A stretch of DNA of 8,436 nt from positions 1 through 8,436 of the IMG/VR virus record IMGVR_UViG_2548876860_000011; one strand, given 5' to 3'. The stretch comes from a virus. Its lineage: Duplodnaviria > Heunggongvirae > Uroviricota > Caudoviricetes. The notes beneath the pieces are model-generated. The model did no database searches. It saw only the letters and a program-made list of their open reading frames with translations, and was not told where the DNA came from. Shown piece by piece: positions 1 to 8,436 of the stretch (positions within the stretch are counted from its first letter, which is position 1; the number at the start of each line of letters is the position of its first letter). Position numbers and translations under genes: made by a program.

Positions 1-216
1 ATGGCTGAAATGAAAAAAATATCTTTGGTTTCTGAAGTCAATACCTACATCAATACCCATCAGTGGCCTGGCAAAGCTGCTATTGGTCGTCTGAAAGGCG
101 AGGAACTGGCGCAATATAATTTGTGGCTGGATTATCTGGACGCACTGGAGCTGATCGATACTTCCGGTGCGCCAGATATTGAATGGCCTACGCCTCCGGC
201 AGTTCAGGCCAGATGA
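1..216 (+). CDS. tail fibre assembly protein, C-terminal portion (probably 5'-truncated by the window edge; alternative cassette of the invertible segment)
   Basis: The 71-aa ORF ends ...LWLDYLDALELIDTSGAPDIEWPTPPAVQAR, which parallels the C-terminus of the 197-aa Tfa on the opposite strand (...LNAVLDYIDAVTATDTSTAPDVIWPELPEA). The two ORFs converge and overlap at 188-216, as U/U' genes do in Mu G-segment-type inversion regions. Tfa proteins are normally much longer than 71 aa, so the ATG at position 1 is likely an internal Met. Confidence 0.5.
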   Translation: MAEMKKISLVSEVNTYINTHQWPGKAAIGRLKGEELAQYNLWLDYLDALELIDTSGAPDIEWPTPPAVQAR

Positions 217-781
217 CATCCGGCGCGGTGCTGGTATCTGTTGCCGTCACCGCGTCAATGTAATCCAGCACAGCGTTAAGTCTGGTTGTTTCTGCCTGCG
301 TCAGTTTATGTCCGGCCTGCAATTTCAGTTGAATCAGACTGATGGAAGCCATTGCTGCATCAATCAGTGACTGGCGCTGTGCTTCTGCCGCGTCTACTGC
401 GGCACCGTGTTGTGCCTCAGTATCTGTCACCCATTTCTCACCATCCCATTTATCATATGGCGTTAACGGTGAAAGCGTGACATAACCGTTTTTGATGGCA
501 CCGATATAACCCACTGTAACAGCAGCACCATTTTCGATTGAGTAAACAGTCTCATTGCGATGGTCTTCTTCATGGCTCCATCCCTTACCTGTAAATACTG
601 CCACTTTTCCCGGAATGTTTTCGCCCGGGTCAATACCAGTGGAACAGGCGGGCATACTTACGCCAGTATTAATATATTCATCAGACCAGCCCGTATACTC
701 AGATGTTTCAGCATCATAATAAAAACAACGCATATCGCCCGGCACTGTAGCCAGCCCATTTTCATCAAAAACAGGTTTCAT
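188..781 (-). CDS. phage tail fibre assembly protein (Tfa family)
   Basis: 197-aa ORF. Its ATG (779-781) overlaps the stop of the upstream tail-fibre ORF (TAATG on the minus strand), which suggests translational coupling. The C-terminal motif matches the Tfa family. Position next to a tail-fibre C-terminal cassette and a pin invertase gene matches e14/Mu/P1 architecture. Confidence 0.8.
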   Translation of the reverse strand: MKPVFDENGLATVPGDMRCFYYDAETSEYTGWSDEYINTGVSMPACSTGIDPGENIPGKVAVFTGKGWSHEEDHRNETVYSIENGAAVTVGYIGAIKNGYVTLSPLTPYDKWDGEKWVTDTEAQHGAAVDAAEAQRQSLIDAAMASISLIQLKLQAGHKLTQAETTRLNAVLDYIDAVTATDTSTAPDVIWPELPEA

Positions 782-1275
782 TATTTAGCCCTCACCAGAA
801 AGTTAAATGCAATATTTCGCGGTCTGACAGCAACAAAATTCACACCATCACCCACCGAGTTACTGGTGAAATTAAATCGTGAAAATCCTGGCTGATTTCC
901 GGCGATGCCATCATGAAAGTTAATTGCGTGTCCCGCACCTTCGCCTATATTCCCGGCAAACTGAGAAAAGTTTGTAGCGGCCTGCCAGCTTAATAATTCG
1001 CGACCACCGTCTGCACCTCGCCCGTCATCCCAGATACGAATGAAATCACCGCGGGCTTCAGGTAATACCAGCGAAGGAAACACTTTCGCCAGCACAGGGT
1101 AATCAGAGGCAGAAAATTTCGTCCCGTTGAACTTCAAAAACACCATACTGGACCAGCTGTCGATTACAGTATTTGGCATTGCGGCGGAGGGCCAGAAGAA
1201 TGGAACGCCAATAGCTGGAGCACCTTCTACCAAACCAACGTTTACGAAAATGAATATTTCAGGTGCAAATGGCAT
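781..1275 (-). CDS. tail fibre protein C-terminal variable-domain cassette (promoterless, silent in this orientation of the invertible segment)
   Basis: 164-aa ORF, Gly/Asn-rich as in tail-fibre receptor-binding tips. No room exists for a constant N-terminal part, because pin starts at 1305 on the other strand. A hix/gix-like crossover site lies inside its 5' end (1225-1250), so the ATG at 1275 is probably not a real start. Equivalent to stfE' of e14. Confidence 0.65.
   Translation of the reverse strand: MPFAPEIFIFVNVGLVEGAPAIGVPFFWPSAAMPNTVIDSWSSMVFLKFNGTKFSASDYPVLAKVFPSLVLPEARGDFIRIWDDGRGADGGRELLSWQAATNFSQFAGNIGEGAGHAINFHDGIAGNQPGFSRFNFTSNSVGDGVNFVAVRPRNIAFNFLVRAK
1225..1250. other. site-specific recombination crossover site for the Pin/Hin/Gin invertase (hix/gix/pix-like)
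   Basis: TTCTACCAAACCAACGTTTACGAAAA is a 26-bp imperfect inverted repeat with the conserved AAACC-NN-(G/C)GTTT centre. Compare hixL TTCTTGAAAACCAAGGTTTTTGATAA as remembered. It sits about 55 bp upstream of pin and inside the 5' end of the tail-fibre variable ORF, where these sites normally lie. Confidence 0.55.
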
Positions 1276-1304
1276 GCTCCCGGCTTTTAGCGATGGGATT
1301 GATC

Positions 1305-1856
1305 ATGCTTATAGGCTATGTACGGGTGTCAACAAATGACCAGAACACAGCATTGCAAAGAAACGCGCTCGAGTGTGCAGGATGTGAACTGATTTTCGAA
1401 GATAAGATCAGCGGTAAGGTGTCCGACAGACCAGGATTAAAAAAAGTGCTCAGGACGCTATCAGAAGGCGATACGCTGGTGGTATGGAAGCTGGATCGCC
1501 TCGGTCGCAGCATGCGGCATCTTGTCGTGCTGGTCGAAGAAATGAGGGAGCGAGGGGTAAACTTCCGTAGCCTGACCGACAGTATAGATACCTCAACACC
1601 AATGGGGCGCTTTTTCTTTCATGTCATGGGGGCGCTTGCCGAGATGGAAAGAGAGCTTATTGTTGAGCGAACACGGGCTGGCTTAGCTGCTGCGCGCGAA
1701 GATGGTCGGATCGGCGGCAGACGACCAAAGTTAACCGCAGAAGAGTGGGCTCAGGCTGGAAGGTTGATTGCTGCAGGTGAGTCTAGAAAACGTGTGGCTA
1801 TAATTTATGATGTAGGGGTGTCGACGCTATACAAAAAATTTCCTGCGCAGCGTTGA
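1305..1856 (+). CDS. pin: serine recombinase, DNA invertase of the Pin/Hin/Gin/Cin family
   Basis: 184-aa product MLIGYVRVSTNDQ... with the catalytic Ser in VRVSTNDQ, the conserved LVVWKLDRLGRS and SLTDSIDTSTPMGRFFFHVMGALAEMERELIVERT blocks, and a C-terminal HTH (VAIIYDVGVSTLYKK). The ORF track starts at an upstream GTG (1263), but the ATG at 1305 gives the canonical N-terminus. Confidence 0.9.
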   Translation: MLIGYVRVSTNDQNTALQRNALECAGCELIFEDKISGKVSDRPGLKKVLRTLSEGDTLVVWKLDRLGRSMRHLVVLVEEMRERGVNFRSLTDSIDTSTPMGRFFFHVMGALAEMERELIVERTRAGLAAAREDGRIGGRRPKLTAEEWAQAGRLIAAGESRKRVAIIYDVGVSTLYKKFPAQR

Positions 1857-1984
1857 GAAAACGCCACCGCGTCGTCGTATGCAAGAACGGGCGGCGACGA
1901 ACTGGCGAACGTTCGATAGTGCGAGTATTGAATGATTGCCAGTCACGGCGGATTGTACTTAAGCAATATGACGGTTCAAGGCGT

Positions 1985-2227
1985 TTAATCTGAAACCAGC
2001 CACATATCAGCCTTTTCAAACATTTCCTGAACAGTACGGCTTATCTGTTCCTTCTCATGCTTGCTGGCGTCAGTGTTGATCGCCGGCAGTGTCATCATCG
2101 GTTTTACCCGGACATCAGCATCAGGGAAGACCCGGTGAACCCTCTTAGTCAATTCGCCCAGAATGATATCTTTTGCACCGGGCAGGCCATCAAAATTCCT
2201 TTTGTCATAAACGAGTTCCACGAACAT
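1985..2227 (-). CDS. DinI-family DNA-damage-inducible protein
   Basis: 80 aa, MFVELVYDKRNFDGLPGAKDIILGELTKRVHRVFPD...EKEQISRTVQEMFEKADMWLVSD. This is collinear with E. coli DinI (81 aa, ...KEDKQRISEILQETWESADDWFVSE). RBS AGAGG lies upstream of the ATG at 2227, and a LexA-box-like site sits 16 bp upstream. Confidence 0.8.
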   Translation of the reverse strand: MFVELVYDKRNFDGLPGAKDIILGELTKRVHRVFPDADVRVKPMMTLPAINTDASKHEKEQISRTVQEMFEKADMWLVSD

Positions 2228-2242
2228 TGCTTATTGCCTCTT

Positions 2243-2262
2243 TACTGGATGGATACACAGTG
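2243..2262. promoter_or_regulatory. LexA (SOS) box-like operator in the divergent dinI-like / orf80 intergenic region
   Basis: TACTGGATGGATACACAGTG fits the CTG-N10-CAG core of the LexA consensus TACTGTATATATATACAGTA, with CTGG in place of CTGT. It lies between the divergent starts at 2227 (-) and 2302 (+). Confidence 0.5.
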
Positions 2263-2301
2263 CTTGTGCTGTTTTTTTATCCAGTGTTCAAGAAGGGGTT
2301 A

Positions 2302-2544
2302 ATGATGCCACAACGTAGCGATATTGAAATAGCCTGGCATGCTTCGATACAGCGAGAACCGAATGGCCGGAAGACTGTCACCACACAGCGGTTTGTCCAG
2401 GAACTGGGTAAGGTTAACTGGCACTGGACGATGAAGCAGGCCAACGATTGGATAGAATGTTATGTGACAACATTCCGCGATGTATCAACGCAGGAAGGCG
2501 AGAACCGAACCTTTCAGCTGTTCAATCCAAACGGAGGACTTTAG
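2302..2544 (+). CDS. hypothetical small protein (80 aa), probably SOS-regulated and co-transcribed with the downstream umuD'-like gene
   Basis: ATG at 2302 with AAGGGG RBS 4-10 nt upstream. The stop at 2542-2544 is 2 bp before the umuD'-like ATG. Codon composition is typical of the surrounding genes. No motif recognised by eye. Confidence 0.5.
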   Translation: MMPQRSDIEIAWHASIQREPNGRKTVTTQRFVQELGKVNWHWTMKQANDWIECYVTTFRDVSTQEGENRTFQLFNPNGGL

Positions 2545-2546
2545 CC

Positions 2547-2976
<430 letters not shown>

Positions 2977-3645
2977 TCATATTGGCGTTATTAGTTCGGC
3001 GCCCTGATTTTTCACATTCCCGACGGCACGCGTTACGGCGTGCCATATAAATTTATCAGCCGGTACAACACCGTCGGCTGCAATTTCCGCTGCTTCTTTC
3101 CCTCCAACATCCTGCCTCATCCATTCACGCGCGGCTTCCGGTAGCAGTACCAGTGGTCGTCTGTCGTGAATATCAACCAGTCCTTTGTCAGCTGCAGCTG
3201 TAACTATCAGGAAACCTTCTGCTTCATCTCCACGTTCGAATGGTGTGCTGCCGATCGCCGCCATAAAAATCGGCTGACCGTCTGCCCGGTGAATAAAGTA
3301 GGGTTGTTTTTGGTCGCCTTCCTTTTTCCACTCATACCATCCATCAGCAAAGCAAATTGCGCGGCCATGCTGCCAGAGTGGTTTAAACATTCTGCTGGTG
3401 GCAGCAGTTTCAGACCGTGCATTAATGAGCGGCGGTTTATCCCACCAACCGGGGGCGTATCCCCAGATAACTGGATCAAGATGCAACTGCTCATCACGTT
3501 CGCTCAGAAGCAGAACTTTTGTTCCTGGCGCTACGTTGAATCTTCCGATGGGTTCTGGATCGTATGGAATATCGCGTTCTGATTCATCAGCGAGAAGGGC
3601 AAGATAATCTTCACGGGTCATTGACTGTGAAAAGCGTCCACACAT
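2977..3645 (-). CDS. SOS-response-associated peptidase (SRAP, YedK family; abasic-site processing protein)
   Basis: 222-aa product begins MCGRF (the Cys2 nucleophile hallmark of SRAP) and is collinear with E. coli YedK as remembered (...DPEPIGRFNVAPGTKVLLL...WGYAPGWWDKPPLINARSETAATSRMFKPLWQHGRAICFADGWYEWKK...). Strong RBS GGAGG precedes the ATG at 3645. It is convergent with the umuD'-like gene and abuts it with no spacer. Confidence 0.85.
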   Translation of the reverse strand: MCGRFSQSMTREDYLALLADESERDIPYDPEPIGRFNVAPGTKVLLLSERDEQLHLDPVIWGYAPGWWDKPPLINARSETAATSRMFKPLWQHGRAICFADGWYEWKKEGDQKQPYFIHRADGQPIFMAAIGSTPFERGDEAEGFLIVTAAADKGLVDIHDRRPLVLLPEAAREWMRQDVGGKEAAEIAADGVVPADKFIWHAVTRAVGNVKNQGAELITPI

Positions 3646-3879
3646 AGAAACCTCCAGCCGTATGTCAGACTGAAAGTATAGGGCAGTTAGAAAAAGTGGT
3701 GCACACCGTTAAAGATTTAAAAGGAGCATGTAAGGTAAATCGGAATGATGGTTTTGTGAATTGATGAATTCCGAAAGTGAAAAAGATACTTAATCATTGT
3801 GTGCTGGCGATACGGGGGCAACATTTGACGGGGTTTTTCCCCTGTAATTCCCCATTGCTTCCCCGTTCAGAAAACAGGC

Positions 3880-3904
3880 AAAAAAACCAGCCGTAACAGG
3901 CTGG
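3880..3904 (-). terminator. rho-independent terminator (native tRNA terminator carried in repeat copy 1; also terminates the 4043-4828 gene)
   Basis: On the minus strand: CCAGCC-tgttac-GGCTGG hairpin followed by T7. Confidence 0.7.
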
Positions 3905-3919
3905 TTCTTCGAGGATTTT

Positions 3920-3964
3920 TGGTCGGCACGAGAGGATTTGAACCTCCGCCCCCCGACACCCCAT
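3920..3964 (-). pseudogene. tRNA-Pro 3' fragment (about 45 nt: anticodon-proximal part, T-arm, acceptor 3' strand and CCA); not a complete tRNA gene
   Basis: Minus-strand sequence ATGGGGTGTCGGGGGGCGGAGGTTCAAATCCTCTCGTGCCGACCA has T-stem/loop GGAGG-TTCAAAT-CCTCT, acceptor 3' strand, discriminator A and CCA. It matches the 3' portion of E. coli proL tRNA-Pro(GGG) as remembered, with one mismatch. The 5' half is absent; flanking sequence diverges after 3964. Confidence 0.7.
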
Positions 3965-4042
3965 AGTGTCGTGCTAATATTCTGATGGCCTATATGCGTC
4001 TACAGTAAGTTGATAGCATCATTCGTCGGTCGCTTCGTAGTC

Positions 4043-4828
4043 TCACATACGGATAAAATTTTTTCTATTGATTTTGTCTCTATCAGAGCCATAAATGATG
4101 GTTGCAAAAAAACGACCTAATTCAAGATGGTGGAAGTGATTATCTTTTGCTTGAACTGTCATTGAGTCTAATATGTTATAGATGCATTCTATGATATGAA
4201 TAACTAATAAAGTGCGATAACCAGCAAGCATTTCACTTCTTTTAAGTAAATAATTTAAATCCCCTGCAGAGTTTATATGGTTTCTGTCTTCATCATAATA
4301 TCCAAGCACATAGCATGGCAGTGTTTCACCATAGCTTCGGTATTGCTCGCATTTTTTATCAATTATATTTTTTTGTCTTTTTGTTAATATTTTGTCGTAA
4401 ATGCTCTTATCGATTTCATTATACCATTGCTTCATGGGATCATTGTCGTTGTCATTAGTAATGAAATCAATATTACTATATCTTGATGAATTTGCAAAAT
4501 TAGTTAACAACTCCATCACTCTGTAGTGAATTTCATTTAAGCCAGAGGGAGAATCAACTCTCTCAATGACTAGGTTAAATAACTTGCTTAAGTTATGACC
4601 GTAATCTCTTAATTTTTTGCGTGATGTATATTTTCCATTTTTATTATAATCATCAAGCATAAGGCAAAGTTTCATAAGCCTTTCTAATCCTAAACTGATG
4701 CCGGATAATGCTTGAAAATACAATCCTCTACTTGCAAAATTTGCTTTCCTTAGGGAAGTGAGCCCTATGCCTAATAATTGTCTTGAAAAGTCAACCTCAT
4801 CAACAAATCTTCTGTATTTTTCATCCAT
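4043..4828 (-). CDS. hypothetical protein (AT-rich cargo gene; possible phage-defence/abortive-infection candidate, function unknown)
   Basis: The ORF track gives 4043-4858 (271 aa), but position 4856-4858 is a TTG with no RBS. The in-frame ATG at 4826-4828 has GAGG 6-9 nt upstream, giving 261 aa starting MDEKYRRFVDEVDF. GC content is roughly 30%, against roughly 50% in the prophage genes to the left. No catalytic motif recognised by eye. Confidence 0.6.
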   Translation of the reverse strand: MDEKYRRFVDEVDFSRQLLGIGLTSLRKANFASRGLYFQALSGISLGLERLMKLCLMLDDYNKNGKYTSRKKLRDYGHNLSKLFNLVIERVDSPSGLNEIHYRVMELLTNFANSSRYSNIDFITNDNDNDPMKQWYNEIDKSIYDKILTKRQKNIIDKKCEQYRSYGETLPCYVLGYYDEDRNHINSAGDLNYLLKRSEMLAGYRTLLVIHIIECIYNILDSMTVQAKDNHFHHLELGRFFATIIYGSDRDKINRKNFIRM

Positions 4829-4892
4829 AAAAACCTCAGTCAGCCAATTAATATTCAAGAATGATTTCTATAAAGAACTAATCTAGTTAAAT

Positions 4893-4928
4893 CATCTGAT
4901 GTAATTAGTATTACAATACCATCAGACG
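4893..4928. promoter_or_regulatory. nested palindrome upstream of the 4043-4828 gene (candidate operator)
   Basis: CATCTGATG-(18 nt)-CATCAGACG inverted repeat, with an inner GTAAT-tagt-ATTAC palindrome, centred about 80 bp upstream of the ATG at 4828. Confidence 0.3.
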
Positions 4929-5014
4929 ACATTGAAGCAGTATTGTGCCTTATCTACCCTATGTACGTCCATTGATAAAAATCTGCGCTTTTCGCAGTGG
5001 GGTCAACCGTAAGC

Positions 5015-5136
5015 TAATTTCCCCATTGCTTCCCCGTTCAGAAAACAGGCAAAAAAAACCAGCCGTAACAGGCTGGTTCTTCGAGGATTTTTGGTCAGCA
5101 CGAGAGGATTTGAACCTCCGCCCCCCGACACCCCAT
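5015..5136 (-). repeat. direct repeat copy 2 (~122 bp): flank + intrinsic terminator + tRNA-Pro-like fragment
   Basis: About 97% identical to 3845-3964. Confidence 0.9.
5051..5076 (-). terminator. rho-independent terminator (copy 2; downstream of the 5333-6301 gene on the minus strand)
   Basis: CCAGCC-tgttac-GGCTGG hairpin followed by T8 on the minus strand. Confidence 0.7.
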
Positions 5137-5150
5137 GGCGGTGATCTACC
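5092..5150 (-). pseudogene. degenerate tRNA-Pro-like fragment (about 60 nt from the D-loop region to CCA; 5' part not recognisable)
   Basis: Same T-arm and acceptor 3' end as copy 1, with G to A in the acceptor strand. The match to tRNA-Pro extends further (GGTAGATCACCGCCATGGGG vs GGTAGCGCACCGTCATGGGG) with mismatches. No convincing 5' acceptor strand. Confidence 0.6.
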
Positions 5151-5332
5151 TTCTCATCAAGGGTAACCATGTGCCAGAAGCAGCCCTTGCGCACATTGGA
5201 TGGGTATCAAATAATGAAGTAGGTCAACTTTATTAAATAAAATTGTGTTGGTTCAGATGATCGAATGGGAATGAATAGTTTATTACTTTTGGTGACCGCA
5301 AGCGCGATCACCTTCGATTTGGTGGCAATTAC

Positions 5333-6301
5333 CTAGAATGATGCACAATCTTTAAGCTCTTTTTCTAGTTGTTCAACCAAGTCACAGCATTTTTTGATAA
5401 CATCTTTAACTGACTCTGAATCTAACTTATGAAAATTACCATTTTTTGTTTTACCTGCTCGATGAACTAAGTCATGCCTAATTAACACGCTTTTATAAAC
5501 TTCTGTGAAAACAGGGAATTTAATACCAAAGGTATCTCGATACATGCCACTTACTTTTGGCAGATTATGATAAAGAACACTCTTCATAGACTCTATCGCT
5601 TGAGACTCTATTTGTTCATGCCTTATAAATAATTCAGAAAGTAAGAATTTTTCTGTATTGTAATCTTTGAAGGTTTCAACAAAATTTCTCAAATTAGTTT
5701 GGCTACCATGAATTAGGGAAATAAATCTGTCACATAAATATGTTTCCAAGGAAGTTATTGTATTGGCATATAGCATATACGATATTTGTATTTGTAAAGT
5801 GCTATCAATTTTTAACTGAGCATCATTTAGTTTTATGGCGTTCTGCATACTATTTTGGAATGTCATATAGACATCTCGTTCAGATAGCGTTCGATCATCA
5901 GAGTACTGCATATCAATAACATCTAGAATGCGCTGTTCGATTAATGAAGGTCTATTCAACTGTAATATATCTATAGTCGCATGTCCTCGCTCAGTTAAAC
6001 CTTCTAAATATCCATTTTTATTTTGTTTCATATGTTCTGAAAAACTTTCATTTAAAGGATTTAGAAGTAATGGTTTGCCATTTTCATCGAGAGGAAACTG
6101 ATCTTTTTTAATCATGCTACATGCCTTACAAGCGATGAGCAGGTTGTCTGTAGCATCTTGGAAGTCAGTATACTTTGATTTTGGGAAAAAACGATCAACA
6201 TCCGCCATCAATGGTTCATAAAGTTTAGTGCCACAGTAAGCACATTGATGCTTAAACTTCTCCCATAGTTCAAGTTTAAACGTTTTATAATTCTTATTCA
6301 T
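5333..6301 (-). CDS. hypothetical protein with N-terminal HNH-like Cys-rich motif and C-terminal HEPN-like Rx4H motif (candidate nuclease/RNase toxin or abortive-infection effector)
   Basis: 322-aa ORF with ATG at 6299-6301 and AAGGAA RBS. N-terminus: CAYCG...DVDRFFPKSKY...DNLLIACKACSMIKKD, an HNH-type CxxC...D-x-D-[H]...N...CxxC layout, but with Arg where the catalytic His normally sits. C-terminus: SVLIRHDLVHRAGK, i.e. R-x4-H as in HEPN RNase motifs. Very AT-rich. Occupies the slot next to icdC where K-12 e14 carries mcrA. Confidence 0.7.
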   Translation of the reverse strand: MNKNYKTFKLELWEKFKHQCAYCGTKLYEPLMADVDRFFPKSKYTDFQDATDNLLIACKACSMIKKDQFPLDENGKPLLLNPLNESFSEHMKQNKNGYLEGLTERGHATIDILQLNRPSLIEQRILDVIDMQYSDDRTLSERDVYMTFQNSMQNAIKLNDAQLKIDSTLQIQISYMLYANTITSLETYLCDRFISLIHGSQTNLRNFVETFKDYNTEKFLLSELFIRHEQIESQAIESMKSVLYHNLPKVSGMYRDTFGIKFPVFTEVYKSVLIRHDLVHRAGKTKNGNFHKLDSESVKDVIKKCCDLVEQLEKELKDCASF

Positions 6302-6745
6302 TGAATAGTTCCTTTATATTCTTGACTTGATTGTTTGTTTGCCAATTTAAGCCAAAGACACACGACTTTAATTGGGCTTGAATCATAGTTATATGTAATC
6401 TATTAAGCAAACACTTTTCATTAATAGCATGAGATAACGCTCAATTCTTTATTTTCCGGGAGTGTGTAACTTCATATCCACCTCTCACTCACAGCGTACG
6501 TTATTGGCGAAAAATTTAGTTAAGCCATTGATAGTTTGTGAAAACACGCATGATTTAAAATCCCTTTGCCGTGAAGGGGCTGATAGGTACAGGCACTTGT
6601 TTTTGCCCTCTAAAACGGTTATCAAAACCAAAAAACATACATTGATAATCAATAGGTTAGGGGAAAGATAAAAGCCAGTTGATTTACAATAAAATTATAG
6701 GATTATTTTTATTTATCATGCGGTTGTATATGAACCATCTAACTA

Positions 6746-6910
6746 CTGTTACGCCATATGGGCTGGACTGAAGCCGCAGACCTGATTGTTAAAGGTATGG
6801 AAGGCGCAATCAATGCGAAGACCGTAACCTATGACTTCGAGCGTCTGATGGAAGGCGCTAAACTGCTGAAATGTTCAGAATTTGGTGATGCGATCATCAA
6901 GAACATGTAA
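6746..6910 (+). pseudogene. icdC: displaced 3'-terminal fragment of icd (isocitrate dehydrogenase), the att-site duplication at the right end of the e14-like element
   Basis: In-frame translation [55 protein letters not shown] matches the Icd C-terminus as remembered. An in-frame stop precedes it at 6740-6742 and no icd-like coding sequence lies upstream (AT-rich intergenic DNA). The length (about 165 nt) matches the icdC remnant of K-12. Confidence 0.8.
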
Positions 6911-6933
6911 TCACTACATGTGTTTAATATTGC

Positions 6934-6967
6934 AACGGGCGTATAACACGCCCGTTGTTTTATTTAT
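6934..6967 (+). terminator. rho-independent terminator of icd
   Basis: AACGGGCG-tataaca-CGCCCGTT perfect 8-bp stem followed by GTTTTATTTAT, beginning 24 nt after the icd stop. Confidence 0.75.
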
Positions 6968-7012
6968 GTAGGTACTATTAATAGCATATCGAGCATATTT
7001 ATATAAAACCCT

Positions 7013-7336
7013 TTACTTGAGCCCATATGGGCATATTTTTATAATGCAACTATTATGCAAACATTTATTTGTTATTTTTCTTTCTCCTGGAGGACACTCT
7101 TGACTGCTTTTGAGTAGACTCCATAAATCCTTGTTGAATGGTGCGATGTTATAAATAGTAATAGGATATTCTTTATCTTTAAGGATAATTCCAGATTTAA
7201 CCGGTGTAAATATACTGCCAGGAGGGAGAAATATAGTAGATTGATACCAGATGATCATTTTCATATTACCCCATATGGCTGAAAAAGATATGCCGCATGA
7301 AGGTTGAATTATCGTGTCAATTACTATCCACTTCAT
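7013..7336 (-). CDS. iraM: anti-adaptor protein IraM (inhibitor of RssB-mediated RpoS degradation)
   Basis: 107-aa AT-rich [35 protein letters not shown]... Length, sequence as remembered and position immediately right of icdC match E. coli iraM (elbA). Confidence 0.75.
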
Positions 7337-7773
7337 TTGTTATGTCTTATCCCACGGTATTTAATATACTTCATTTGGATGTTCATTTCTTTATTTTGCA
7401 TATGAGTATATTACCCCTTCAAAAAATAAATTAATTAAAACGATTGCTTATATAAAACAAAATTTAAAGCAAGGAATCTCAATGGATGTTAAACAAAATG
7501 AGATTTAGTGAAAACAATAAATTATTCACTTCGTTTTAGATTTGTTTAGCTATAATGTTATACATTCAAATGACTGAACATCCTGTAATTAAAACATAGC
7601 CTTTATGCTACTTTGTGCCAATTTGCTAAACATTATGGTTGCCTTTTTATATAACGATAATAATGAATATAAGCATGACATGAGAATAAGGTTTCAATTT
7701 TTGAGTTATATAGGAAAGGTTTAACCTGTTCCTGGCTAAAATACATATAACTGGATGATGACTAAACCAAAAC

Positions 7774-7828
7774 ACATGTGCGTTAAGTATTGAAACGGGC
7801 GTATGGCACACCCGTTGTTTTTATAAAT
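7774..7828. repeat. second, diverged copy of the icd terminator region (hairpin AACGGGCG-tatggca-CACCCGTT + T-run)
   Basis: ACATGTGCGTTAAGTATTGAAACGGGCGTATGGCACACCCGTTGTTTTTAT is about 80% identical to 6917-6967. It lies between iraM and ycgX, oriented as a plus-strand terminator although both neighbours are minus-strand genes. Confidence 0.6.
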
Positions 7829-8031
7829 ATATTAACCGTTATAAAATAACGTATAGAAAGTCAAGTGATCACATTTCAAATATCAATTTGATAGTATTGG
7901 CATGGTGATTATTTATGGGTAGCAATAAAAGGACAGTATTTATCATCCATAGGGATAGTCTCTGTACTTTTATTCCCATTATGCTAATGCCTTACTGAAT
8001 TATGAAGCATTTCTTAAGCATCCAACTTTAG

Positions 8032-8436
8032 CTAGATTAATGGTTTATTATTTTCTACATCTTCAATATATAAAAGCGTATTATCAATGGCGTAGTAACT
8101 GCGTTTGTTATGATTAACATCAGTAACCCACCGGAAAACGCCCGCGCCTGCTAGTGTTGAACAGTATTCCCGAAATGTAGATTTTCCGCAAATATGAAGC
8201 AATGCGGCCTCTTTTATTTTAGCAGGGTTCTTGGTCGTACTAACTTTTAACAGGTTCCTGGTTCCTCTTAATAACAAAACCGTGTCATCGTGAGTAATAA
8301 TTCTGATGTTATCCGTAGCCAGATAATAAATGTAATGTGCAATACGGTGATGTTTTAATTCTGAATAAAACCAGGAGAAGTTTTGCTCTTTTCTCACTTG
8401 CTCAAACATCTTTTGAAAAACAACGACCTGATCCAT
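8032..8436 (-). CDS. ycgX: YcgX-like protein (DUF1398 family), host gene
   Basis: 134-aa ORF starting at the window edge (ATG at 8434-8436 on the minus strand). Length and position after iraM match the K-12 order icdC-iraM-ycgX. Sequence recognised only by context and approximate memory. Confidence 0.65.
   Translation of the reverse strand: MDQVVVFQKMFEQVRKEQNFSWFYSELKHHRIAHYIYYLATDNIRIITHDDTVLLLRGTRNLLKVSTTKNPAKIKEAALLHICGKSTFREYCSTLAGAGVFRWVTDVNHNKRSYYAIDNTLLYIEDVENNKPLI

Follow-up and report, generated by a model that had tools for sequence, protein, structure and literature searches.

What occupies the right end of an e14-like prophage when mcrA, which lies there in Escherichia coli K-12, is missing? 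The question is raised by IMG/VR record IMGVR_UViG_2548876860_000011, of which positions 1–8436 were analysed (the window, 8436 nt of Caudoviricetes DNA). The window runs from tail-fibre genes and a Pin-type invertase gene across icdC, the displaced 3' end of icd, to iraM and ycgX. The initial annotation had read the interval between pin and icdC as a hypervariable cargo slot and a good place to look for new defence genes. Our analysis indicates that 3646–6910 is an accessory region next to the attachment site (att), at the right end of an e14/SfV-like prophage in icd, and that two AT-rich genes within it, encoding proteins of 261 and 322 residues, would serve in defence. To this reading, mosaic anatomy and defence mechanism taken together, we assign a probability of about 0.6. 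By sequence comparison the region resolves into five pieces: an arm and att of a proL-type lineage, a 1172 bp module carrying the 261-residue protein gene, the 322-residue protein gene, a 134 nt arm of the e14 type and icdC. Its features are as follows.

3646–3847: arm of a proL-type phage attachment region, GC content (GC) 0.41, intermediate
3848–3964, minus strand: repeat copy A (repeat search; alignment to K-12 proL and to prophage ends; terminator scan)
4043–4828, minus strand: gene for the 261-residue HEPN-fold protein, GC 0.32, GC at third codon positions (GC3) 0.29
4983–4997, minus strand: small terminator-like hairpin between repeat copy B and the 261-residue protein gene (consensus scan only)
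5019–5183, minus strand: repeat copy B (repeat search and alignment)
5333–6301, minus strand: gene for the 322-residue fusion protein, GC 0.33
6318–6345, minus strand: sigma-70-like promoter match just upstream of the 322-residue protein gene (9 of 12 consensus positions)
6612–6745, plus strand: e14-type attachment arm, GC 0.27, the conserved right border of the cargo slot
6746–6910, plus strand: icdC, the displaced 165 nt 3' end of icd (attR; alignment to K-12 icdC b4519 and Pfam Iso_dh C-terminus)

The icd slot

The K-12 record confirmed the gene order given for e14 in the initial annotation, pinE–mcrA–icdC–iraM–ycgX, with ymgK and ymgL between the last two genes. Alignment to K-12 found no mcrA homology in the window, as the initial annotation had held, and the interval that is replaced extends over 1847–6611, 4.8 kb here versus 1.05 kb with mcrA in K-12. 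Open reading frames (ORFs) and Pfam matches agree with the content first described for it: DinI, a decayed S24/UmuD-like gene and SRAP, followed by the two AT-rich genes. The end of the element had been placed at 6746–6910, and this segment does align to K-12 icdC, translating to the C-terminus of Icd, with iraM and ycgX next to it; the variable region, however, already ends at 6611. A sensitive search was made of 5426 complete E. coli genomes, to which the genome counts below refer. Homology to other icd-integrated elements always starts at 6610–6612, and we therefore regard 6612–6745 as a conserved attachment arm. The arm shares about 70–94% identity with other icd elements and is only blockwise similar to K-12 e14.

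To the left of this arm the content varies. The interval 3646–6910 is rare, recurring at 99.5% identity or more in eight genomes and always at icd/iraM; the K-12 mcrA type is present in 330. Other loci carry an acyltransferase with a LEM-3-like GIY-YIG protein (nine genomes), insertion sequence (IS) IS66 with gtr-like O-antigen glucosylation genes and a HumD pseudogene, a satellite-like element with three hypothetical genes, or IS26/Tn3/tetA beside a frameshifted GIY-YIG gene. At least six types of content thus precede a constant right flank of arm, icdC and iraM. We did not find, across the E. coli genomes compared, the same genes conserved in syntenic order, the pattern that would speak against a slot, and the proposal of a variable cargo slot is upheld. 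By annotation, mcrA is the only established restriction gene among the slot contents. The 165 nt 3' end of icd occurs 7361 times in the 5426 genomes, corresponding to about 1935 extra copies, one in about a third of the genomes. Occupied icd sites are therefore common, and most of their right ends are uncatalogued.

The window resembles K-12 e14 in its icd site, in the 165 nt icd 3' duplicate at attR, in the iraM and ycgX flank, in the tail-fibre genes and Pin-type invertase on its left, in the arm of about 134 nt left of icdC and in carrying nuclease-type genes in the slot. It differs in that pin is only 75% identical to pinE and in that the mcrA interval is taken up by DinI, an 81-residue ORF, the umuD-like pseudogene, SRAP, the proL-type att fossils and two HEPN-type genes.

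That the cargo is phage-borne is indicated by three observations: it lies inside attR, it is followed by int–xis junctions in some assemblies and it is present on IMG/VR viral contigs. In several assemblies the block of SRAP, the two AT-rich genes, the arm and the icd fragment continues into int–xis and lambdoid early genes instead of iraM. Five of these loci (L005–L007, L009 and L010, at about 4400–6100) show the icd fragment followed directly by genes for a 380-residue integrase, xis and RecT/Gam/KilR. Such a junction is either that of tandem prophages or an attP-form junction at icd.

The attachment-site repeats

With one indel set aside, the direct repeats 3848–3964 and 5019–5136 (117–118 nt) are 98% identical. 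In minus-strand orientation, each comprises the 45 nt at the 3' end of a tRNA-Pro(GGG), from the anticodon loop onwards, a terminator hairpin of the proL type and about 33 nt more. In copy A these parts occupy 3920–3964, 3881–3910 and 3848–3880, respectively, the last being phage arm. Copy A ends exactly at the anticodon loop; copy B extends to about 5183 and has the form of a full-length but degenerate tRNA-Pro-like sequence, 5019–5183 having 85% identity to a phage-type tRNA-Pro annotated in strain AR_0128. The K-12 proL locus matches the tRNA part and the hairpin only (85–87%), and the two copies share changes (GGGGGGC and an identical post-tRNA sequence) that are absent from proL and from sister prophages. 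On this sequence evidence we interpret the repeats as fossil phage-type tRNA-Pro (proL) attachment sites.

Their lineage can be traced. The segment 2984–3964, comprising SRAP, the arm and copy A, is 93.6% identical in DNA sequence to the end of a prophage with pin, DinI, UmuDC and SRAP genes; in strain 100181 this prophage lies directly against genuine proL, beside yejM. The arm 3646–3880 was found in 22 genomes, eight of the present type at icd and 14 others, where it has 94.5% identity and adjoins a tRNA-Pro or a tRNA-Pro remnant. In UTAK-5 the same arm adjoins a satellite-like element, with the homology stopping inside the T-arm, and in AR_0128 it adjoins the annotated 82 nt phage-type tRNA-Pro (7276–7357 of locus L041), far from proL and near paoD. 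We note that next to the att of AR_0128 there follow a gene for a 327-residue membrane protein, IS1 and a gene for a 310-residue HEPN-domain protein with an RSKAVH motif (10200–11132); this protein has no significant similarity to the 261- and 322-residue proteins (E = 0.2). DinI, SRAP and the arm on the SRAP side thus belong to the backbone of a sister prophage lineage with a tRNA-Pro att, and pin, DinI and half of the umuD-like gene have been lost from most carriers of the cargo. The SOS module, which the initial annotation placed in the slot, is not slot-specific cargo.

The gene for the 261-residue protein is the sole ORF in the 1172 bp unit between the two proL-type att copies, and the whole lies inside a prophage that uses the icd att. 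Such an arrangement is expected if a small circle entered an att, through the action of an integrase or through one homologous crossover; it is also what would remain after tandem accretion and a later deletion. In the model we favour, the two copies would be fossils from the time when a small circular module entered, by site-specific (integrase-mediated) or Campbell-type recombination, the att of an ancestral proL-type phage, which would later have gained an icd-specific int/att module. It follows from this model that the slot would gain its cargo by accretion at att sites.

Modules bracketed by repeats are a recurring pattern. A Serratia homologue of the 322-residue protein lies within direct repeats of about 170 nt (6131–6300 and 8380–8549 of locus L018), with the end of a P4-like satellite on one side and an integrase fragment on the other; in another Serratia locus (L019) the repeat is present three times. 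A 262-residue Proteus homologue of the 261-residue protein is enclosed by 43 nt repeats (6854–6896 and 8649–8691 of locus L016) at the end of a P2-like prophage. The arrangement also recalls the accretion concept and the cis-mobilizable elements (CIMEs) described in PMC5704250, in which an integrase-less module enclosed by att direct repeats stands beside a larger integrative element using the same att. CIMEs were described for integrative and conjugative or mobilizable elements of Firmicutes (PMC5704250) and not for cargo inside a prophage; here the array lies within a prophage whose own att is a different one (icd), and excision is only a proposal.

The principal alternative to insertion is that the 118 nt att was duplicated by homologous recombination or unequal crossing-over between related phages, with neither an integrase nor a circle, an account that is silent on how the cargo was acquired. 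We consider this unlikely, but it deserves to be taken seriously: the repeats are long, 98% identical and share private changes, as a duplication or gene conversion of recent date would leave them, an integrase is absent from the unit that they enclose (which holds one ORF only), and an empty site (SRAP–att–322 lacking the 261 module) was found neither in complete E. coli genomes nor in IMG/VR or metagenome contigs. Set against this, the homology of copy A starts exactly in the tRNA anticodon loop, the typical crossover position of integrases of tRNA-integrating elements, the same att region is common to several different neighbouring elements, and the repeat-bracketed modules recur in Serratia and Proteus. 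On structure alone, the integrase model is indistinguishable from one homologous crossover by a circle. A bolder extension of the insertion model, that the 1172 bp unit is a minimal integrase-less 'att cassette' inserted and excised at the att sites of resident prophages by phage or satellite integrases, we regard as speculative and rather doubtful.

The 261-residue protein

The ORF had first been given 271 residues. All of its homologues have 259–267 residues and the start is therefore placed at the ATG at 4828, giving 261 residues. The two AT-rich genes had been called orphans, but both have homologues, and those of the 261-residue protein are numerous: a profile search of 1.84 billion representatives returned 1132 clusters at E ≤ 1e-3, 643 of them at E ≤ 1e-10. 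The close family is a small one of 26 clusters, patchily distributed over E. coli, Pectobacterium, Klebsiella, Xenorhabdus, Proteus, Aeromonas, Pantoea and Gallibacterium. A scan of species-representative genome contigs gave a single match, from Gallibacterium; the family is accessory, and few species representatives carry it.

The protein has no match in Pfam, PADLOC, NCBIfam or PHROGs, and ten distant relatives have none in Pfam or PADLOC. An AlphaFold2 model (predicted local-distance difference test score, pLDDT, of 88) predicts a HEPN helical fold. Among 45 diverse family members, Glu11, Gly22, Arg50, Arg116, Tyr117 and Trp135 are invariant, and Glu49, Lys53, His78 and Asn119 nearly so. 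A precedent for such a protein is HepS of the Salmonella prophage Gifsy-1, a stand-alone prophage HEPN tRNase that acts by abortive infection (PMC13043305). The 261-residue protein differs from it in sequence, with no similarity to HepS and a PDB profile search that was empty at E ≤ 10, and its family is without an obvious Rx4-6H motif.

The homologues are found in prophage settings. In Klebsiella the gene lies between gpS and gpV of a P2-like prophage, in Proteus after gpD–ogr at the end of a P2-like prophage, and in Xenorhabdus beside HicAB and phage head genes. At the DNA level, a 73%-identical relative is similar within the coding sequence only, as fits a single-gene moron. The protein may be the founding member of a large unannotated family (more than 1000 clusters) of non-canonical HEPN abortive-infection proteins.

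The 322-residue fusion protein

The N-terminal domain of the second protein is an HNH domain of the PtuB/TIGR02646 type, as indicated by matches to PADLOC PtuB (2e-23) and, in a PDB profile search, to PtuB (4e-7). The C-terminal domain matches Pfam HEPN_RiboL-PSP at 0.012, below the cutoff, and the same domain is recorded for many homologues. It has both the HEPN fold and an Rx4-6H motif, the intact RHDLVH (Arg275-HDLV-His280), of which Arg275 and His280 are invariant in the family alignment.

In the HNH domain the Zn-ligand and Asn residues Cys20, Cys23, Asn53, Cys58 and Cys61 are invariant (paired CxxC). The catalytic His is replaced by Arg (H37R; codon 37 is CGT at 6191–6193) in all E. coli representatives. 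Of the 38 other family members aligned, 37 have His at position 37 and one (P0039) has Gln, so that this single transition (CAT to CGT) is unique among the 39. With the general-base His gone, and by analogy with other HNH nucleases, DNA cleavage by the HNH domain has probably been lost; the domain may persist as a Zn-binding module.

PtuB suggested the Septu system and the type I-A retrons (Ec78/Eco7 and Ec83) as relatives. Neither a PtuA ABC-ATPase nor a reverse transcriptase or non-coding RNA was found in the window (ORFs and Rfam) or in the loci of 322-residue homologues, and Septu membership was rejected because PtuA is absent. The protein further differs from the PtuB of these systems in its fused HEPN domain and in the His to Arg change of this copy. 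Another parallel is RAZR/PD-T7-4, a Zn-finger and HEPN RNase of abortive infection (PMC13017515). Both have an N-terminal Cys4 Zn-binding domain and a C-terminal HEPN domain in one polypeptide; the shared design is CxxC...CxxC plus HEPN, with the HNH active-site His lost in the present lineage. The N-terminal domain here is a PtuB-type HNH and not a zinc ribbon, and the HEPN domain is of the RiboL-PSP type and not DUF4145; the resemblance appears to be one of design, as distinct from demonstrated homology. RAZR acts alone as an abortive-infection system (PMC13017515).

In Serratia a homologue of this protein lies where a P4-like satellite ends, beside a type I restriction–modification island; in Pantoea one adjoins xis–int of a lambdoid prophage, and in Vibrio one is part of an array of short cassettes. 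The homologues of each of the two genes thus occur singly in the cargo of unrelated prophages and satellites.

Proposed function and alternatives

From fold, domain content, position and precedent we infer that both genes encode single-protein nucleases of abortive infection or superinfection exclusion, a proposal that is on balance probable. Each would be an independent, constitutively expressed moron encoding a latent nuclease. A superinfecting phage would activate the nuclease, whose HEPN domain would cleave RNA (tRNA, rRNA or mRNA); translation would stop and the infection would abort, so that the prophage and the population of lysogens would be protected. In the E. coli lineage of the 322-residue protein the HNH domain would probably be only a Zn-binding sensor or oligomerization domain, with HEPN as the effector. 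The two genes would fill the role that mcrA has in K-12 e14.

The setting is comparable to that of the defence hotspots of P2 and P4 (Rousset et al., 2022; PMC9122126), with constant flanks, a variable content of one to a few genes and a content that includes HEPN-domain and unannotated proteins. Homologues of both window genes are found in P2-like prophages and one P4-like satellite. The P2 positions of these homologues (gpS–gpV and after ogr) differ from the gpA–gpQ hotspot of PMC9122126, the phage here is e14/SfV-like, the slot lies between the tail-fibre/pin module and attR, and both AT-rich cargo genes are candidates.

Several points weigh against the reading of an accreted defence region. 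The defence role is deduced from fold, domain content and genomic position. No PADLOC model exists for the 261-residue protein, and its family alignment has no canonical Rx4-6H motif, so that nuclease activity is not assured. PADLOC gives the 322-residue protein domain-level matches only; H37R may mean that this gene is decaying in the present lineage, and because the E. coli copies are about 99% identical, selection on it cannot be judged. The promoter scan found fewer sigma-70-like matches in the region than in its shuffles, and the match at 6318–6345 is weak. The two absences given above, of an integrase between the repeats and of an empty site, count here as well: with neither an empty site nor a variant arrangement in complete E. 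coli genomes, IMG/VR or metagenome contigs, mobility of the 1172 bp module is unsupported. The slot catalogue, finally, consists of about ten inspected loci and three frequency counts, short of a full census. Of the suggestion that this is a place for new defence genes, the presence of one known defence gene (mcrA) and of nuclease-type candidates is borne out; the defensive function of the candidates is deduced.

Could the two genes be selfish or decaying passengers, for example what is left of toxin modules, or homing-type nucleases, in a region that is a junkyard of recombination scars? The lost HNH catalytic His fits such an account, as do the neighbouring umuD-like gene, a frameshifted pseudogene with umuC missing, the further 1.5 kb deletion in most carriers, a truncated copy of the 322-residue protein gene in one E. 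coli metagenome (P0032) and the lack of any system-level match in PADLOC. Both ORFs are, on the other hand, intact in every full-length copy inspected, both families are full-length and strongly conserved across genera (40–83% identity) with invariant motif residues, and the homologues recur where tested defence genes reside (PMC9122126). We judge it improbable that the genes are mere passengers.

Still less probable, by a wide step, is a single two-component system, of sensor and effector or of toxin and antitoxin, made up of both proteins. In all E. coli loci recovered the genes are neighbours and share a strand, and both products have HEPN folds. They are nevertheless separated by a gap of about 500 nt with the tRNA-type terminator hairpin of copy B, the att copy itself and a second hairpin, and the E. 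coli copies are near-identical, so that their co-occurrence represents one evolutionary event. Klebsiella, Proteus and Xenorhabdus have the 261 type only, and Serratia, Pantoea and Vibrio the 322 type only; no partner gene is conserved across contexts for either. Since each gene occurs without the other in other genera, we treat them as separate units.

Base composition and the remainder of the window

The initial annotation had placed a sharp drop in GC at about 3650. The drop is real, from 0.497 in 1–3645 to 0.357 in 3646–6745, with a single-changepoint likelihood ratio far beyond chance (twice the log-likelihood difference, 2*deltaLL, is 152), but its maximum lies near 4052, at the 3' end of the 261-residue protein gene and about 400 nt to the right. 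The difference in place arises because 3646–3964 (GC 0.41–0.54) is phage backbone of intermediate composition. The two coding sequences have GC values of 0.32–0.33 and GC3 values of 0.27–0.29, and a GC-rich island at 5019–5150 (GC 0.54) breaks the low-GC tract. We considered the GC-rich islands as functional RNA genes and dropped the idea, as nothing in ARAGORN or Rfam explains them: ARAGORN called no tRNA genes in the window, and Rfam gave sub-threshold matches only (tpke11 at the icd terminator, and SNORD72). The tpke11 small RNA match, at 6915–6985, reaches 26 bits (gathering score 43; E = 0.033) and spans the icd terminator hairpin.

Beyond icdC the chromosomal flank 6911–8436 has a GC of 0.32, as AT-rich as the cargo; low GC is therefore of no value as a mark of the right end of the element, which is marked by the icd fragment. 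That the low-GC tract might be an ordinary AT-rich chromosomal island continuous with iraM–ycgX has this similarity of composition in its favour and is otherwise scarcely credible, as icdC and the e14-type arm separate the two genes from this flank and leave them with the prophage, the block leads through the icd fragment into int–xis and not iraM in other assemblies, it is present on IMG/VR viral contigs, and different genes stand beside the same flank in K-12 and other strains.

The other features of the window, assigned from six-frame ORFs and Pfam unless stated otherwise, are the following.

188–781, minus strand: tail-fibre assembly gene
781–1275, minus strand: tail-fibre fragment
1263–1856, plus strand: Pin-type serine invertase (Pfam Resolvase and HTH_7 domains)
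1985–2227, minus strand: DinI
2299–2544, plus strand: conserved phage ORF of 81 residues (phrog_3893)
about 2448–2976, plus strand: decayed S24/UmuD-like gene, interrupted by a (CAGC)13 tract
2977–3645, minus strand: SRAP (YedK-like) gene, the last backbone gene before the variable region (Pfam SRAP, E = 7e-51)
7013–7336, minus strand: iraM
8032–8436, minus strand: ycgX

The UmuD-like gene contains a perfect (CAGC)13 tract at 2612–2663, at the 'QHPSATYF' position, which shifts the frame; the length of the tract is variable, with 11 copies in strain AH01. From its sequence the gene looks like a pseudogene, because of this tract, the lack of a GDSM catalytic Ser context and the absence of umuC. 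Relative to AH01, the tail-fibre/tfa segment 169–1247 is inverted, with a 29 nt overlap at 1219–1247, and the remainder is collinear; this is consistent with a Pin-invertible segment caught in its other orientation.

Most other carriers of the cargo (L005–L012, L033 and L034) have a clean 1.5 kb deletion of 1236–2753, which removes pin, DinI, the 81-residue ORF and the 5' half of the umuD-like gene. A Pin-mediated origin of this deletion was dropped, its endpoints being without convincing similarity. Sister prophages of the proL type carry DUF3037 and HipA-family kinase genes between pinE and DinI (1671–3226 of L002 and 2670–4225 of L040); this interval is a second variable position in the same arm. 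Past icdC, iraM is flanked by two 43 nt direct repeats (6919–6961 and 7779–7821, 84% identical) that are copies of the icd terminator hairpin region. Three loci (L011, L012 and L034) are without 6962–7775, and iraM therefore looks like an insertion/deletion polymorphism bounded by these repeats.

Significance

The ends of prophages beside attachment sites are known to hold lysogenic-conversion and defence genes. What is new here is the pin–icdC slot of e14-like phages as a well-anchored instance, with two candidate genes and an unusual att-bracketed module. A literature search on e14, mcrA and hotspots found no paper on this slot as a hotspot; further searches found none that cites WP_032162445 or WP_032162444 and none that combines RiboL-PSP, HNH and phage. 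The slot is a concrete and easily anchored hotspot, and it supplies two testable candidate anti-phage genes, one of them from a large family that is unannotated in Pfam, NCBIfam, PHROGs and PADLOC. Should the cassette reading of the 1172 bp unit be true, prophage ends would act like integrons for anti-phage genes, and the Serratia and Proteus modules would be further examples. The fossil tRNA-Pro att sites suggest accretion at att as the mechanism by which the slot is filled, and this, if confirmed, would help to predict where new defence genes accumulate.

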